Shown: positions 58,857 through 64,000 of the stretch, piece by piece
Layout: each line of letters starts with the position of its first letter
Numbering within the stretch: position 1 is the stretch's first letter
Source: Arcobacteraceae bacterium
GTDB lineage: Bacteria > Campylobacterota > Campylobacteria > Campylobacterales > Arcobacteraceae
DNA: 64,000 bases
Direction of reading: 5' to 3'
Assembly: GCA_963662945.1 (NCBI GenBank)
Contig: OY759974.1
Coordinates: 2,368,001 to 2,432,000 of the forward strand
Program-made: the position numbers and the translations under genes
The notes under the pieces: generated by a model
Told to the model about the DNA's origin: nothing
The model's database searches: none
What the model saw: the letters and a program-made list of their open reading frames with translations, nothing else

Positions 58857-61172
58857 TTATTGTAACTCTTCTCTTACAATCTTTACAGCTTTCACCATAT
58901 TTTCTAAACTTGGTTTTACCTCTTCCCATTTTCTTGTTTTTAGTCCACAATCTGGATTTATCCATAATTGTTCTTTTGGTAATACTTCAAGAAGTAGTTT
59001 AATTTGTTTTACAATTTCATCTACACTTGGAACTCTTGGACTATGGATATCATAAACACCTGGTCCAACTTCTTGTTTGTAACCAACCTCTTTAAATACT
59101 TTTAGAAGTTCATTTCCACTTCGTGCTGTTTCTATAGAAATAACATCAGCATCCATAGCTTCTATAGTTTTTATAATATCATTAAACTCACTATAACACA
59201 TATGTGTATGTATCTGTGTCTCTTTATTGGCACTACTTACAGAGATTTTAAAATCTCTAACAGCCCAATCTTCATAGATTTTAATTTTTTGAGTTCTTAA
59301 TGGATAGCCTTCTTTAAATGCTGCTTCATCTACTTGAATGATTTTAATACCAGCTTTTTGTAAGTCATCAATCTCATCACTTAAAGCAACTGCAATTTGT
59401 TTTGATACTTCATCTCTTGGTTTATCATCTCTTACAAAAGACCAGTTTAGAATAGTAACAGGACCTGTTAACATCCCTTTCATGATTCTTTGTGTTTTAC
59501 TTTGTGCATAAGTTATCCAATCTACAGTCATAGGTTTTGGTCTGCTAATATCTCCATAGATAAAAGGTGGTTTTACACATCTACTTCCATAGCTTTGTAC
59601 CCAACCATTTTGACTAAAACCATATCCATCTAGTTGTTCACCAAAGTATTCAACCATATCATTTCTTTCAGGTTCTCCATGAACTAATATCTCTAAATCA
59701 CATTTTTCTTGAAACTCAACACAATCATCAATATAGAGTTTCATTTGTTTTTCATACTCTTCTTGTGTAATTTGTTTGTTTTTGAAATCTTTTCTAGCTT
59801 TTCTTACTTCTTGTGTTTGCGGAAATGAACCTATGGTAGTTGTTGCTAAATCTTCATATTTTAAAATCTCTTTTTGGATTTTGATTCTCTCTTCATATAT
59901 ACCATCTCTTTGAAGTTTTGTATGGTTTTCAACTCTTGTTTGAACCTCTTTATTATGGATACGCAAAGAAGTTTTTCTACTGTGATTCGCTTTTTTATTT
60001 TCTTCATATTCTATTTTTTCATCTGAATTTAATCTCTCGATACCATCAAAAAATATTTTTGATACAAGGGAAATCTCATCAAGTTTTTCGTATGCATAAC
60101 TTAACCAGTTTTTGATTTCTAAATCCATCTTTTCTTCATATTGTAAAGTAAAAGGTGTATGTAAAAGGCTACAAGATGAACTGATGATGATATTGTTTTT
60201 ATCTACAGACTTAGCAATTTTCTCTAAAAGCTTCACTGTTTGTTCAATATCATTTTTCCAGATATTTCTTCCATCAACAACACCAGCTATGAGTTTTTTA
60301 TCACTAGAAGCAACTGTCTGCAGTGATTCTAGATTTTCAACTCCATATAAAAAGTCTAAACCAATTCCCCAAATAGGTGTATTTACCAATACTTTTGTAG
60401 CTTCATTTGAGTGTTCAAAATATGTTGTTACTATGATTTTGATATTTTGACTTACAGTTGCTAATCTATCATATGTAAGTTTTATAAGACTTAACACTTT
60501 TGGTTCATTATCTTTTACAAAGATTGGTTCATCAATTTGTAGTGTGATATTCTCATCAAGTTGTGAAATCTCTTCTAATAACTCTTCATAAATAGGTAAA
60601 ATTTTATTTAAAAGCTCAAAAGTATCTCCTCTATCAATTCGTTTTGAAAGTGCTAAAAATGTAATAGGACCTATAATATTGATTTTTGTTTTTATCCCTT
60701 GATTTTTTGCCTCTTTATATTCTTCAATTATTTTTTTACTATTAAGTTTATATTGATCTTCTTTTGATAACTCAGGTACTATATAATGATAGTTTGTATT
60801 AAACCATTTTGTCATCTCCATAGCTACATTTGACTTATCTCCTCTTGCCATAGAAAAATACAATTCCTCATCACACAGATGTTGAAATCTTTTAGGGATA
60901 GCACCTAACATAACGATAGTATCAAGCATATTGTCATACAGACTAAAGTCATTTGAACTAATATATTCTATTCCAGCATTTTTTTGGTATTCCCAATGTC
61001 TTTTTTTGAGTTCACTTGCAACTCTTTTTACCTCTTCAAATGAACATTTTTTTGCCCAAAAACTTTCTAATACTTGTTTTAACTCTCTTTGTTCTCCAAT
61101 TCTTGGAAATCCTACGATGTAATTTTTTCGAGGAAAAATTTCTTCGAAACCGCTATTCACTTTTTTTGACAT
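58857..61172 (-). CDS. metE: Cobalamin-independent methionine synthase
   Basis: GFPRIG, MTKWFNTNYHY, HGEPERNDMVEYF, HTHMCYSE, NPDCGLKTR. Confidence 0.97.
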   Translation of the reverse strand: MSKKVNSGFEEIFPRKNYIVGFPRIGEQRELKQVLESFWAKKCSFEEVKRVASELKKRHWEYQKNAGIEYISSNDFSLYDNMLDTIVMLGAIPKRFQHLCDEELYFSMARGDKSNVAMEMTKWFNTNYHYIVPELSKEDQYKLNSKKIIEEYKEAKNQGIKTKINIIGPITFLALSKRIDRGDTFELLNKILPIYEELLEEISQLDENITLQIDEPIFVKDNEPKVLSLIKLTYDRLATVSQNIKIIVTTYFEHSNEATKVLVNTPIWGIGLDFLYGVENLESLQTVASSDKKLIAGVVDGRNIWKNDIEQTVKLLEKIAKSVDKNNIIISSSCSLLHTPFTLQYEEKMDLEIKNWLSYAYEKLDEISLVSKIFFDGIERLNSDEKIEYEENKKANHSRKTSLRIHNKEVQTRVENHTKLQRDGIYEERIKIQKEILKYEDLATTTIGSFPQTQEVRKARKDFKNKQITQEEYEKQMKLYIDDCVEFQEKCDLEILVHGEPERNDMVEYFGEQLDGYGFSQNGWVQSYGSRCVKPPFIYGDISRPKPMTVDWITYAQSKTQRIMKGMLTGPVTILNWSFVRDDKPRDEVSKQIAVALSDEIDDLQKAGIKIIQVDEAAFKEGYPLRTQKIKIYEDWAVRDFKISVSSANKETQIHTHMCYSEFNDIIKTIEAMDADVISIETARSGNELLKVFKEVGYKQEVGPGVYDIHSPRVPSVDEIVKQIKLLLEVLPKEQLWINPDCGLKTRKWEEVKPSLENMVKAVKIVREELQ

Positions 61173-61232
61173 TACTAATCCTTTAGTTTTATTATTGTTA
61201 TTATTGTTTTGAAATGATTTTATTTGTTTGAA

Positions 61233-61574
61233 TTAAAGTTGTAGTAGAGGTGGATGAACACCAGTTCTTCTAAATGCGAAGTAAGTTGTATAGTATGGAC
61301 ATCTTGGGATATAGTGATAACTAAGAAGTGCAAGTCTTGTTTTAAGTTTGTAAAAACAATTACAATGACAAGGTTTATTTTTTAGAGTAGAAGTGACTAA
61401 TAAAAGCTCACAAGGTGGTTCTTCCTCTTCCAACTCTTTTTCTTCTTGAGATATGTTTTTATGAAGTAGAGAAAATAGAGATGATACTTGACTTTGTAGT
61501 TTTTGTTCTACAGATGATGCAAGTATGGCACTTAGTGTAAAGTAGTTTTTCCCAAAACCTTTTAATAACTTCAT
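61233..61574 (-). CDS. Hypothetical Cys-rich protein upstream of metE, candidate leader peptide
   Basis: 113-aa ORF with AAAGGA upstream, co-oriented with and 60 nt before metE; PCHCNC and terminal RRTGVHPPLLQL. Confidence 0.7.
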   Translation of the reverse strand: MKLLKGFGKNYFTLSAILASSVEQKLQSQVSSLFSLLHKNISQEEKELEEEEPPCELLLVTSTLKNKPCHCNCFYKLKTRLALLSYHYIPRCPYYTTYFAFRRTGVHPPLLQL

Positions 61575-61625
61575 TTCTCTATTTTTCCTTTGATTTTTGG
61601 AATTTTATTCCTTTTATCCTTAAAT

Positions 61626-61808
61626 TTATTTAAGAGGATTGAGCTTTTGTTTAACTTTCTTTGGTATTTGTGCCATTTTTAAAGTAGTTTTTTTGATAAA
61701 ATTATCATTTTTATCAAATTGGTTTACTTCTAAAGAGTTATTTTTTTTATCAAAAGAGATAGCTTTATAGATAAAGCCATTCTCTTCAAATACAATATTT
61801 TTCAACAC
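61626..61808 (-). CDS. Small basic hypothetical protein coupled to topA
   Basis: GTG start overlaps the topA stop; 60 aa ending AQIPKKVKQKLNPLK. Confidence 0.7.
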   Translation of the reverse strand: MLKNIVFEENGFIYKAISFDKKNNSLEVNQFDKNDNFIKKTTLKMAQIPKKVKQKLNPLK

Positions 61809-64000
61809 TATTTTGTTTCTGTTTTCTTTTTAGTTGTAGTTGTTTTTTTTGCCGTAGTTTTTTTTGCAGGCACTTTTTTTGTTGTTGTTTTGCTTGCAGT
61901 TTTCTTTGCAGGTGCTTTTCGTCCACCTTTAGTTGGTTGATTTTTGATAATCTCTTGTATCTCTTTAAAATTTAAAGCTTTGATATCTTGTTCATCAAGC
62001 TCTTTAGGAAGTTTGTAGTTCTTTTTCTTTGATTTGATATAAGGACCATATCTTCCCACAAGTATTTGAGTATCTTCTTCTGGAAAGTCTTTAATTAAAG
62101 ATTTTGCTTTTGCTTCTTGAAGTTCTTTGATTACCTCTAATGCTCTTGAGTGTGTTATGGTATATGGATCATCTTCTTTTAAACTAAAAAATTCACTTTT
62201 TACTTGTAAATATGGACCAAATCTTCCAATATTTACTTTTATCTCATTCCCATTTTCATCATTTCCCAAAGCTTTAGGAAGTGTTAATAATGTTTGTGCT
62301 TCTTCAAGTGTAATACTATTTACACTTATATTTGCAGGAATTGAAGCTATTTTTGGTTTTTCTTCATCTTCTTTGTCACCTAGTTGGACATAAGGACCAT
62401 ATTGACCAACTCGTGCAGTTACAGGTTTTCCTGTTTTTTCATCAATACCAAGTTCTCGAATATCTGAAAATTTAGCACGAGGAGCATTTTCCTCTTTATC
62501 TTCAATATTTTTTACAAAAGGTTGATAAAACTCTTTCATAACATCTTCCCAAGCTATTTTACCTTCAGCTATTTGGTCAAATTCTTCTTCAATATGAGCA
62601 GTAAAACCTAAATCAACAATATGTTCAAAATGTTCCACTAAAAAGTCATTTACCACTGTACCTATCAAAGTAGGTGCAAGTTTTTTATCTTCTGTTTTGA
62701 TGATATATTCTCTTGCTTGTATAGTAGCAATTGTTGGTGCATACGTAGAAGGTCTTCCAATTCCCTCAGCTTCCATTTTCTTAACTAAACTAGCTTCTGT
62801 ATATCTTGCAGGTGGTTTTGTGAAGTTTTGTTCACAAGTTAAACTTTCAAGATTTAACACAGTTCCTTTTTTGACTGTTGGAAGGATTACATCTTGATTA
62901 TCTAAAGCTGCTTCTGGATCATCACTTCCTTCTGTATAAGCTTTCATAAATCCAGCAAATACTATTCTTGTTCCTTTAGCTTGAAATTCATATTCTTTAT
63001 TTTTTCCAGCACTGATTTTATACGTTGTATTTGCTACAACAGCTTGTGCCATTTGTGTTGCTATAGTTCTTTTCCAAATAAGACTATAAAGTCTATATTG
63101 GGCATTATCAAGATAAGGTCTTACATCACTTGGTTTTAAAGCAAGATTTACAGGTCTGATTGCTTCGTGAGCTTCTTGTGCACCTTTTGCTTTGCTTTTG
63201 TAGTGTCGTGGGCTTCCTAGTGCATACTCTTTTCCATATTCACTTGAAATCACCTCTTTTGCCATAGATGTAGCAAATGTCGAAAGATTAACACTATCTG
63301 TTCTCATATACGTAATAAGACCACCAGTATGTCCTGGAACATTTACGCTACCTTCATAAAGCTGTTGAGCCACTATCATAGTTTGTTTTACACCAAAACC
63401 AGCTTTTCTACTTGCTTCTTGTTGCAATGTTGAAGTTGTAAAAGGAGGAGCAGGGTTTCTTTTGCTTTCTTTTTCTTCTATATCTTCTAGGATATATTGT
63501 CCTTGTTTACAACTATTTTCTACAACTCTTGCTTCTGCTTCATTATTTACTTTTGCTGTTTTACCATCAATTTTTGCTAATTCTGCTCTAAATTCTGGAG
63601 TATTAAATTCTGTTTTTATTTTCCAAAATTCAACAGGGATGAAAGCTTCAATCTCTCTTTCTCTATCAACAATAATTCTAACTGCAACACTTTGAACTCT
63701 TCCAGCACTTAATCCGTATCGTACTTTTTTCCATAATAGAGGAGAAAGTTTGTATCCAACTGCTCTATCTAAAATTCTTCTTGCTTGTTGTGCATCTACA
63801 AGATGTTGATCCACATCTCTTGGGTTTTCTAGTGCTTCAAGAATTGCATTTTTTGTAATTTCGTGAAAAACGATTCTTTTTATTGGATTTTTTTGTATTT
63901 TAAGTGCTGGGATAAGATGCCATGCAATAGCTTCTCCCTCTCTATCCTCATCGGCCGCGAGGTAGATAACTGTATCTTTTGTGATCTGTTTCTTTAAGTC
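61808..64000 (-). CDS. topA: DNA topoisomerase I (type IA), 5' end cut by window edge
   Basis: Frame stays open to the edge (YLAADEDREGEAIAWH Toprim); SAGRVQS, ITYMRTDS, AHEAIRP, GIGRPSTY. Confidence 0.97.
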   Translation of the reverse strand, partial: DLKKQITKDTVIYLAADEDREGEAIAWHLIPALKIQKNPIKRIVFHEITKNAILEALENPRDVDQHLVDAQQARRILDRAVGYKLSPLLWKKVRYGLSAGRVQSVAVRIIVDREREIEAFIPVEFWKIKTEFNTPEFRAELAKIDGKTAKVNNEAEARVVENSCKQGQYILEDIEEKESKRNPAPPFTTSTLQQEASRKAGFGVKQTMIVAQQLYEGSVNVPGHTGGLITYMRTDSVNLSTFATSMAKEVISSEYGKEYALGSPRHYKSKAKGAQEAHEAIRPVNLALKPSDVRPYLDNAQYRLYSLIWKRTIATQMAQAVVANTTYKISAGKNKEYEFQAKGTRIVFAGFMKAYTEGSDDPEAALDNQDVILPTVKKGTVLNLESLTCEQNFTKPPARYTEASLVKKMEAEGIGRPSTYAPTIATIQAREYIIKTEDKKLAPTLIGTVVNDFLVEHFEHIVDLGFTAHIEEEFDQIAEGKIAWEDVMKEFYQPFVKNIEDKEENAPRAKFSDIRELGIDEKTGKPVTARVGQYGPYVQLGDKEDEEKPKIASIPANISVNSITLEEAQTLLTLPKALGNDENGNEIKVNIGRFGPYLQVKSEFFSLKEDDPYTITHSRALEVIKELQEAKAKSLIKDFPEEDTQILVGRYGPYIKSKKKNYKLPKELDEQDIKALNFKEIQEIIKNQPTKGGRKAPAKKTASKTTTKKVPAKKTTAKKTTTTKKKTETK

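Follow-up and report, generated by a model that had tools for sequence, protein, structure and literature searches.

The cobalamin riboswitch is the near-universal bacterial control of metE, encoding the cobalamin-independent methionine synthase, and of btuB, encoding the vitamin B12 receptor, and the Campylobacteria appear as a whole class to be without it. The analysis concerned a 64,000-nucleotide stretch of contig OY759974.1 (assembly GCA_963662945.1, positions 2,368,001 to 2,432,000 of the forward strand) from an Arcobacteraceae bacterium, the whole of which is called the window here, where a small open reading frame (ORF) directly precedes metE. In the position of the riboswitch a conserved, translated leader was found. 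With slightly better than even confidence, we read this ORF as a cis-acting arrest leader of the CutF/CruR kind that places metE under the control of B12 status; that the ribosome stalls, which ligand it answers to and whether expression is thereby raised or lowered are what we infer. By analogy, the leader family, which seems to be Campylobacteria-wide and new, would fall into the class of nascent-chain sensors to which CutF and CruR belong.

The leader ORF starts with ATG and comprises 113 codons and a stop codon (Table 1). Its translation contains EEEEPPC (residues 49–55), PCHCNC (68–73), RCP (91–93) and RRTGVHPP (102–109), ends with LLQL after the last of these, and has no methionine beyond M1. 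A first-pass annotation of this DNA had listed these motifs in a 113-residue ORF before metE, and all of them were recovered from the translation; the strand, which it left unstated, is minus. The metE start lies 60 nucleotides downstream on the same strand, and its Shine-Dalgarno (SD) sequence, AAAGGA, is located six bases ahead of the ATG. The metE product matched Pfam PF08267 (Meth_synt_1) and PF01717 (Meth_synt_2) as well as NCBIfam NF003556 (1079 bits) and TIGR01371 (1022.8 bits). The G+C content of the source genome is 29%, and its nearest relatives with a name are Arcobacter and Arcobacteraceae MAGs.

Table 1. Features of the metE leader region in the window.
Feature	Coordinates	Strand	Basis
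metE leader peptide	61233..61574	minus	ORF list, homologues, codon-position test
N-terminal motif, residues 5–22 (KGFGKNYFTLSAILASSV)	61509..61562	minus	Family-wide conservation; codon positions 0.28/0.18/0.52
Acidic linker end and first proline pair, residues 44–54 (EEKELEEEEPP)	61413..61445	minus	P53 at least 90% conserved in alignment A1; no codon-position bias
Cys cluster C69-H-C71-N-C73, candidate sensor	61356..61370	minus	C69 and C71 invariant in A1; C71 at least 90% conserved in alignment A2
C-terminal conserved block, residues 89–109 (IPRCPYYTTYFAFRRTGVHPP), candidate arrest motif	61248..61310	minus	Conservation, codon test
Variable tail (LLQL) and stop codon	61233..61247	minus	No codon-position bias
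A-rich spacer between leader and metE, 60 nucleotides	61173..61232	minus	Sequence; metE SD AAAGGA at 61179-61184
metE, cobalamin-independent methionine synthase, putative regulated gene	58857..61172	minus	Pfam, NCBIfam
60-codon ORF between topA and leader	61626-61808	minus	Abuts topA stop
topA	61808-64000, runs off window end	minus	ORF list

Among 359 candidate proteins, 345 of about 110 residues matched the leader at E ≤ 0.01. The named homologues are entries called "hypothetical protein" from Sulfurimonas, Sulfurovum or Campylobacterota, and the length of about 110 residues is conserved in full across families at 30–65% identity. A search of 1.8 billion representatives with the family profile gave 145 clusters (50% identity) at E ≤ 0.001, profile matches were present in 188 of 401 evenly sampled Campylobacteria genomes, and tblastn confirmed 285 of 295 pattern matches in a species-level genome collection. 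The ORF could be assigned to no family in Pfam or NCBIfam, an ESM Atlas search with the leader gave no usable match, and a Foldseek comparison of its 74-sequence structural model with the PDB gave no match at E ≤ 10.

The level at which this conservation acts was examined in a codon alignment of 45 full-length leaders, in which mean pairwise differences were determined at codon positions 1/2/3. The differences were 0.167/0.169/0.512 for residues 89–109 and, for the N-terminal motif, as listed in Table 1; no bias was found for the acidic linker (0.60/0.50/0.63) or for the tail after the final proline pair (0.59/0.45/0.59). The invariant residues R102, R103, G105, P108 and P109 are each encoded by four or five synonymous codons. 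Judged by these codon patterns, the leader ORF is a real, translated gene whose peptide is under purifying selection. The alternative of a chance ORF or a riboswitch not recognised as such, with the peptide irrelevant, would suit the position, which is where riboswitches sit, and the codons of the proline pair, which are anti-Shine-Dalgarno-like. Both an RNA element and a chance ORF are excluded as the cause of the conservation because of the codon-position differences and the full synonymous spectra at the invariant residues, third positions being about three times more variable than first and second ones. The frame is moreover open in all 146 metE-type loci, no Rfam match was obtained and no significant fold was found (z -0.42), which makes this explanation hardly credible.

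An Rfam scan of positions 60900–62100 revealed no riboswitch, and the two matches obtained were at chance level (E 0.27 and 7.8). The cobalamin riboswitch model RF00174 was found in 0 of 61 relatives from the same order, the positive control being its detection in 7 of 14 model genomes, and neither this model nor RF01482 or RF01689 gave a match in the source genome. Scans of the sequence ahead of metE in 14 loci, and ahead of the btuB operon of the source genome, were likewise without a riboswitch. These scans bear out the earlier remark that no cobalamin or S-adenosylmethionine (SAM) riboswitch consensus is visible at the locus.

The leader always stands first, immediately ahead of its target and on the same strand. 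The next gene was metE in 19 of the first 20 loci (the exception, L019, is a signal-peptide match inside a receptor gene) and in all of a further 80. Of 35 loci taken from more distant genomes, metE came next in 22, and a gene for a TonB-dependent receptor in 13. Conservation of the ORF and its linkage to metE, on which the earlier proposal depended, were thus found, together with a second class of target. The receptors comprise 553–655 residues, one of them being fused in frame with the leader, and the B12 receptor model TIGR01779 was the best NCBIfam match for 8 of 12 receptors, with up to 318 bits. Inspection of the 8 kb downstream of these 12 receptors showed a BtuF-like binding protein, an FecCD/ABC transporter or cob genes in eight loci: a BtuF-type periplasmic binding protein was the next gene in six, FecCD/ABC transporter genes were present in six, and cobamide salvage genes (CobD/CbiB, CobQ/CobB, CobT-like or CobS) in four.

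The source genome contains a second leader outside the window (locus L108, G000:C1:46460-55987), a peptide of 56 residues, MKHLRGYGKRYFSLAIIAMYS...YKTSPPFLTFNY, which matched the family profile at E 2.8e-5. It has the N-terminal motif and the end ..YKTSPP followed by six residues, and is without CxC. It lies 37 nucleotides upstream of the gene for a BtuB-like receptor (286.6 bits to TIGR01779), past which the gene order is a 120-residue ORF, BtuF-like protein, ABC ATPase, BtuC, CobB, BluB, a kinase, CobD and CbiB; CobB, BluB and CbiB exceed their curated cut-offs. Each regulated operon has one leader copy of its own, and the copies within one genome differ from each other, which would be expected if the leader is a cis element rather than a trans-acting factor. 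Elsewhere, metE and btuB-btuFCD-cob are the gene set under cobalamin riboswitches (RF00174, RF01482, RF01689). The leader shares with these the 5′ position and the same regulon of metE, btuB, btuFCD and cobamide salvage genes, but the riboswitch is an RNA sensor, whereas the conserved element here is a translated peptide.

The family layout comprises, in order, the N-terminal motif M-[KR]-x-P-[KR]-G-F-G-K-N-Y-F-x-L-x-A-I, a variable acidic linker that in most cases has a proline pair of its own, then (K)PCHCNC, a spacer, [ST]-x-x-[H/A/S]-P-P and a variable tail. In an alignment of 36 closer members (A1), the residues F7, Y11, F12, A19, C69, C71, I89, P90, R91, C92, Y95 and A100 were invariant, as were R102, R103, G105, H107, P108 and P109 at the C-terminal end. 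In an alignment of 74 diverse members (A2), invariance was confined to Y11, P108 and P109, and G6, F7, F12, L14, I17, A19 and C71 were at least 90% conserved. The first-pass annotation had predicted a conserved C-terminus and cysteine with a variable N-terminus; the C-terminal [ST]Gx[HAS]PP and a near-invariant cysteine were indeed found, and it is the predicted variable N-terminus that did not hold, since GFGKNYF..AI.A is conserved and the variable parts are the acidic linker and the tail after the proline pair. The lack of internal methionine, pointed out for the window leader, does not extend to the family either, several members of A1 having methionine.

A CxC motif is present in most members, and the spacing within the C-terminal half is fixed. 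In 67 metE-type leaders with CxC, the distance from the first CxC to the final proline pair is 36 residues in 47 and 33–35 residues in 17, and in 9 of 11 receptor-type leaders it is 33 residues; the outliers are fused or mis-delimited frames. The tail after the proline pair has 1–5 residues in 56 of 71 metE-type leaders and 0–11 residues in 66, the remaining five being longer or fused frames. Some short natural forms of 47–86 residues retain the CxC-spacer-PP part alone, and others of 56–90 residues retain the N-terminal motif and an xSPP end alone. H107 and C92 are replaced in distant members, whose endings read ..KTKTGLAPP, ..LTGISPP or ..NNAISPP. The element [ST]-x-x-[H/A/S]-P-P is the sole one common to the full, short and distant forms examined, the degenerate L092, without a proline pair, excepted. 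The window leader itself has two proline pairs, P53-P54 (61413-61418), in a D/E-P-P-D/E context about 31 residues past the N-terminal motif, and P108-P109 (61248-61253), 36 residues past the CxC cluster.

RAPP/RAGP arrest peptides include SecM, ApdA, ApdP and ApcA. The RAGP of SecM is cited in PMC9426467. The leader family is similar to these in its C-terminal x-A/x-P-P stall-type motif, some members reading G-[IL]-A-P-P, and in the end of conservation at the proline pair. It is unlike them in that the leader arginine is not at -3, the targets are not protein-export genes and there is no sequence relationship, stalling of the present leader being putative. That the motif is not a canonical RAPP had been recognised at the outset, and the family ends HPP, APP or SPP.

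A closer parallel is CruR (Bp2923, DUF2946) of Bordetella pertussis. As described in PMC9426467, CruR is encoded by an upstream ORF of the operon of the TonB-dependent transporter bfrG and consists of CXXC, 45 residues and an RAPP three residues before the end, the fixed spacing from the cysteines to the proline pair being its hallmark; the TonB-receptor operon is on as long as copper is absent and the ribosome arrested, whereas copper lifts the arrest and allows termination by Rho, and RAPP mutants are constitutively off. Like CruR, the leader is a small first gene of an operon, in which a cysteine motif precedes, by a constant number of residues, a C-terminal ..PP close to the stop codon; its N-terminal segment may be export-like, and it heads TonB-dependent receptor operons; in the proposal made here the ligand would likewise be the nutrient acquired by the operon, switching the operon off by relieving the arrest. 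Unlike CruR, it has CxCxC and not CXXC, a spacing of 33–36 and not 45 residues, and an HPP, APP or SPP end and not RAPP, neither CXXC nor RAPP being conserved in the family; the intergenic gap is short with no evidence of Rho here, metE and genes for the uptake and salvage of B12 take the place of copper genes as targets, and the phylum is Campylobacterota. No sequence relationship was found: none of the 74 diverse members matched PF11162 (DUF2946) at E ≤ 0.1, and the window ORF did not match it at E ≤ 1. The DUF2946/CutF-type layout suggested earlier thus stands as regards the cysteine motif, the spacer and the C-terminal proline pair, and membership in DUF2946 does not.

CutF of Rhodobacter capsulatus, also of DUF2946, is described as requiring a Sec signal peptide and a stable stem-loop, copper inducing a stall that turns the gene on (PMC9973294; bioRxiv 10.1101/2025.02.05.636593), and the authors of PMC9973294 state that the coupling need not be uniform among CutF-like proteins. 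The coupling proposed there, in which a stalled ribosome frees the ribosome-binding site of the next gene, is similar to that considered here. The leader family differs from CutF in that it shows no significant stem-loop, in its signal-like segment, which is weak, contains arginine in receptor-type leaders and is absent from short forms, and in its expected logic, which is repression. As the CutF-like operational definition is worded in PMC9973294, the 113 residues of the window leader, its proline pair four residues before the stop and the intergenic gap of 60 nucleotides agree with the size, the PP end and the gap asked for, while its neighbours, metE or btuB-btuFCD-cob genes, are not transition-metal genes. 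The leader family fits that definition, as given in the same source, except for the metal-related neighbours and a demonstrable signal peptide.

On this basis a three-step proposal was modelled on CruR, whose ligand is the very nutrient that its operon acquires. A ribosome translating the leader would pause or arrest at the invariant C-terminal ..G-x-[H/A/S]-P-P. At this arrest the CxC cluster would be 33–36 residues back from the peptidyl-transferase centre, and the N-terminal motif already outside. Distances of 33–36, and also of 31, residues are about the length of the ribosomal exit tunnel, and with this presumed geometry a pause at a proline pair would find either candidate sensor module on the point of leaving the tunnel. 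The arrested ribosome would cover the tail codons and so leave the metE ribosome-binding site free, or would shield the transcript from Rho, and metE (or btuB) would be on; with the signal present, the arrest would be relieved and expression of metE or btuB would fall.

The most likely signal is vitamin B12 status, because the family heads BtuB-type uptake and cobamide salvage operons, cobalamin riboswitches are missing and the leader accompanies MetH, the distribution of which is given below. In the simplest version of B12 sensing, the Cys/His motif of the nascent chain would itself bind a corrinoid. That the nascent leader itself senses the corrinoid, with Cys/His ligating cobalt and releasing the proline-pair arrest, and so is a peptide replacement of the cobalamin riboswitch for metE and B12 uptake and salvage across the Campylobacteria, is a tentative idea which we consider more apt to be wrong than right. 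The idea of an arrest-type leader in place of a riboswitch, put forward in the first-pass annotation, thus seems right in kind; the zinc, thiol or methionine signal suggested with it is probably wrong and is not what the neighbourhoods point to, the second target class of btuB-btuFCD-cob making B12 status likelier.

The observations that weigh against the reading as a B12-responsive arrest leader, and some in its favour, concern the signal, the sensor and the stall, and the coupling to metE, and are considered in that order. As to the signal, metH was found (E ≤ 1e-20) in the source genome and in 53 of 61 relatives. Among 28 relatives with metE, 21 have a full metH and the leader is present in all 21, and seven are without metH, with the leader in one of them (G046); G042, with a single 146-bit match covering the first 340 profile positions, was counted among the seven, and no leader-like ORF was found upstream of metE in the six besides G046. 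Because the genomes are related, the association is suggestive. The case of G046 is typical of its genus (g20), in which a short leader of about 47–49 residues, HCNCIFKNK...SLR[KR]SGCHPP, stands before metE in 64 of 79 sampled genomes, while none of the 41 genomes of the genus sampled for metH gave a match. B12 repression of a sole methionine synthase is implausible. Two ways out may be considered for these short forms, which are without the N-terminal motif: the arrest module may now be needed for metE expression and have been kept after B12 control was lost, or the family may sense a shortfall in methionine synthesis, such as through homocysteine or SAM. The receptor side also has weak points, since all receptors fall below the TIGR01779 cut-off of 599.7 bits and no B12-related gene was recognised in the 8 kb downstream of 4 of the 12.

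The second way out leads to an explanation that keeps the cis leader and changes its signal, to homocysteine, SAM or methionine as a metabolite of the methionine cycle, or to Zn or Co as a metal, sensed through the Cys/His cluster, with metE and B12 acquisition both raised when methionine synthesis falls short. MetE is a zinc enzyme, and the short leader before the sole methionine synthase of genus g20 would be explained. The Cys/His cluster also resembles the metal or thiol ligands of CutF-like proteins as these are described in PMC9973294. Left unexplained are the presence of the leader in 21 of 21 metE-bearing relatives with metH and in 1 of 7 without it, and the nature of the btuB-btuFCD-cob operons, which are classically controlled by B12 and not by methionine, zinc or cobalt; furthermore, the leader offers no Met codons for sensing of Met-tRNA, and some btuB leaders are without the CxC cluster. 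A signal other than cobalamin was judged quite unlikely.

As to the sensor and the stall, B12 control by an arrest leader presupposes stalling at the leader proline pair, which is argued by analogy, with the end of conservation at that pair and the fixed distance from the cysteines as indirect signs, and to our knowledge HPP, APP and SPP have not been described as arrest motifs. The CxC cluster is absent from the own-genome btuB leader and from L084, the N-terminal motif is absent from the short forms carrying CxC, and no single candidate sensor is universal in the family. AlphaFold models had a mean predicted local distance difference test score (pLDDT) of 56.9 and a predicted template modelling score (pTM) of 0.26 with the 36 close sequences, and of 73.5 and 0.39, respectively, with the 74 diverse sequences; in the latter model, helices were predicted for residues 14–47 and 71–86 (pLDDT 82–92), and the best-conserved C-terminal block as coil. 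The leader is thus predicted to be without a confident globular fold, which favours the arrest reading, and a small helical protein would still be compatible with the models.

Such a free-standing protein, co-transcribed with metE and btuB and active once released from the ribosome, might escort a corrinoid or a metal, serve as a binding protein after export or regulate in trans. It would accord with the two helices of the deeper alignment, with the full-length conservation across families and with the four conserved potential ligands of the Arcobacter/Sulfurimonas type (C69, C71, C92 and H107). The N-terminus, with a basic start and then 13 uncharged residues, is short, sequence-conserved and contains arginine in receptor-type leaders; its motif also opens a true signal peptide in some TonB-dependent receptors (P0247, P0263 and the L019 receptor), which would suit export. 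However, H107 and C92 are replaced in the distant APP and SPP types, pTM is low and the best-conserved block is the predicted coil. Conservation ends exactly at the proline pair, with a neutral tail after it, and forms of 47–80 residues retain only the part from CxC to PP, or only the N-terminal motif and PP. In addition, a separate divergent copy stands before each target operon, no relative was found in Pfam, NCBIfam, ESM Atlas or the PDB, and an exported protein before the cytoplasmic MetE has no obvious rationale. A free-standing protein was therefore regarded as unlikely.

As to the coupling, the evidence for the step from the leader to metE is thin. Leader and metE are 4 to 454 nucleotides apart in the 146 metE-type loci, and fewer than 70 nucleotides apart in 90 of them. 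The RNA around the leader 3′ end and the metE start showed no significant structure (the z of -0.42 given above), and on this value stem-loop masking of the metE SD was rejected. In the minimum-free-energy fold of the window, CUACU..CUUUA (pyrimidine-rich tail codons) pairs with UAAAG..UAGUA (metE ribosome-binding region). Over 146 loci, pairing of the codons for PP and tail with the metE SD and start averaged -7.9 kcal/mol and was stronger than in shuffles (-5.3) or with other windows of the leader (-4.8), with a mean z of -1.6 over loci that are from related genomes and not independent; the signal is weak and partly trivial, CCNCCN being complementary to GGAG. Natural variants add to these difficulties. 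In L075, L083, L086 and L092 the leader stop overlaps the downstream start (gap -4), which implies termination-reinitiation coupling rather than a free spacer. In L082 (G181), L078 (G178) and P0238 the leader frame reads without a stop into metE (897-residue frame) or a receptor (731- and 344-residue frames), and these run-on frames may be natural fusions, lost stop codons or assembly errors. Overlapping or fused leaders imply a coupling unlike that proposed.

Other modes of coupling were considered at the RNA level. A scan for promoters and terminators gave no more sites than in shuffles, and no terminator or promoter site was found between leader and metE on the minus strand. A classical attenuation leader of the trpL type was rejected, there being no Met codon after the start, no terminator-like site and no significant structure. 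Short spacers are A-rich, with G nearly confined to the SD (A35 C7 G3 T15 in the window), and all spacers together have 12.6% G and 14.2% C; a Rho rut-like spacer is not claimed, since the spacers are not C-rich. Metatranscriptome contigs of 151–155 nucleotides from two runs of one study aligned with 95–99% identity to positions 61249-61398, corresponding to leader codons ~59–109, which make up the conserved half, the rest of the window including metE being without cover. They probably stop where strains diverge, DNA carry-over is possible, and they support no conclusion on transcript ends or levels.

The literature searched contained no description of the leader family, of a metE or btuB leader peptide in Campylobacterota or of peptide-based B12 control. 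The main texts of PMC9973294 and PMC9426467 mention neither metE, cobalamin nor Campylobacter, and two supplements of PMC9973294 gave no match for these terms; its File S1, outside that search, might list receptor-type members. The C. jejuni ribosome-profiling census, as far as its text in PMC11955535 goes, lists no small ORF upstream of Cj1201 (metE) and offers no experimental support; the MetL leader it describes lies upstream of metB, not metE. What is known, then, is the kind, a proline-pair leader peptide sensing through the nascent chain, and what is new is the family, the motif, the phylum and the regulon. If B12 control by the leader is true, nascent-chain sensing of the CutF/CruR type would be extended beyond metals, to a vitamin cofactor, and beyond Pseudomonadota, to Campylobacterota, whose class Campylobacteria takes in sulfur oxidisers that are abundant at sea and at vents as well as several genera that are gut-dwelling or food-borne. 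It would also explain MetE/MetH switching in Campylobacteria, provide a new proline-pair arrest motif for structural work on the ribosome, and serve as a sequence marker for B12-regulated operons in Campylobacterota, the ORFs being at present annotated as "hypothetical protein" or uncalled. Direct corrinoid sensing, if true, would be without precedent among sensors.

Some further observations were made on the family and the locus. The receptors that share the N-terminal motif form a class of ~650–690 residues whose true signal peptide begins with PKGFGKRYFSLAAILA (P0247, P0254, P0263 and L019:1474-3165), and second profile matches per genome were open frames of 628–691 residues beginning with the leader motif. 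In G039 the leader-metE pair is immediately preceded by a TonB-dependent receptor gene with the leader-type N-terminal motif. The leader may perhaps be derived from the 5′ end of a receptor gene. A YcaO-family gene was found inside the leader-btuB-btuFCD operons of three genomes (L097:3200-4837, L105:3886-5505 and L106:2553-4172), and in L097 it adjoins a nitroreductase (BluB-like) gene. The 60-codon ORF upstream of the leader, which belongs to no known family, was not found in locus L005 or in more distant loci, and is 90–97% conserved in the three closest relatives (L002-L004). Finally, where its relatives usually read MSKNYIVGFPRIGE, MetE of the window (KVNSGFEEIFPRK) has about 13 additional residues following MSK, at codons 4–16 (~61122-61163, minus strand).

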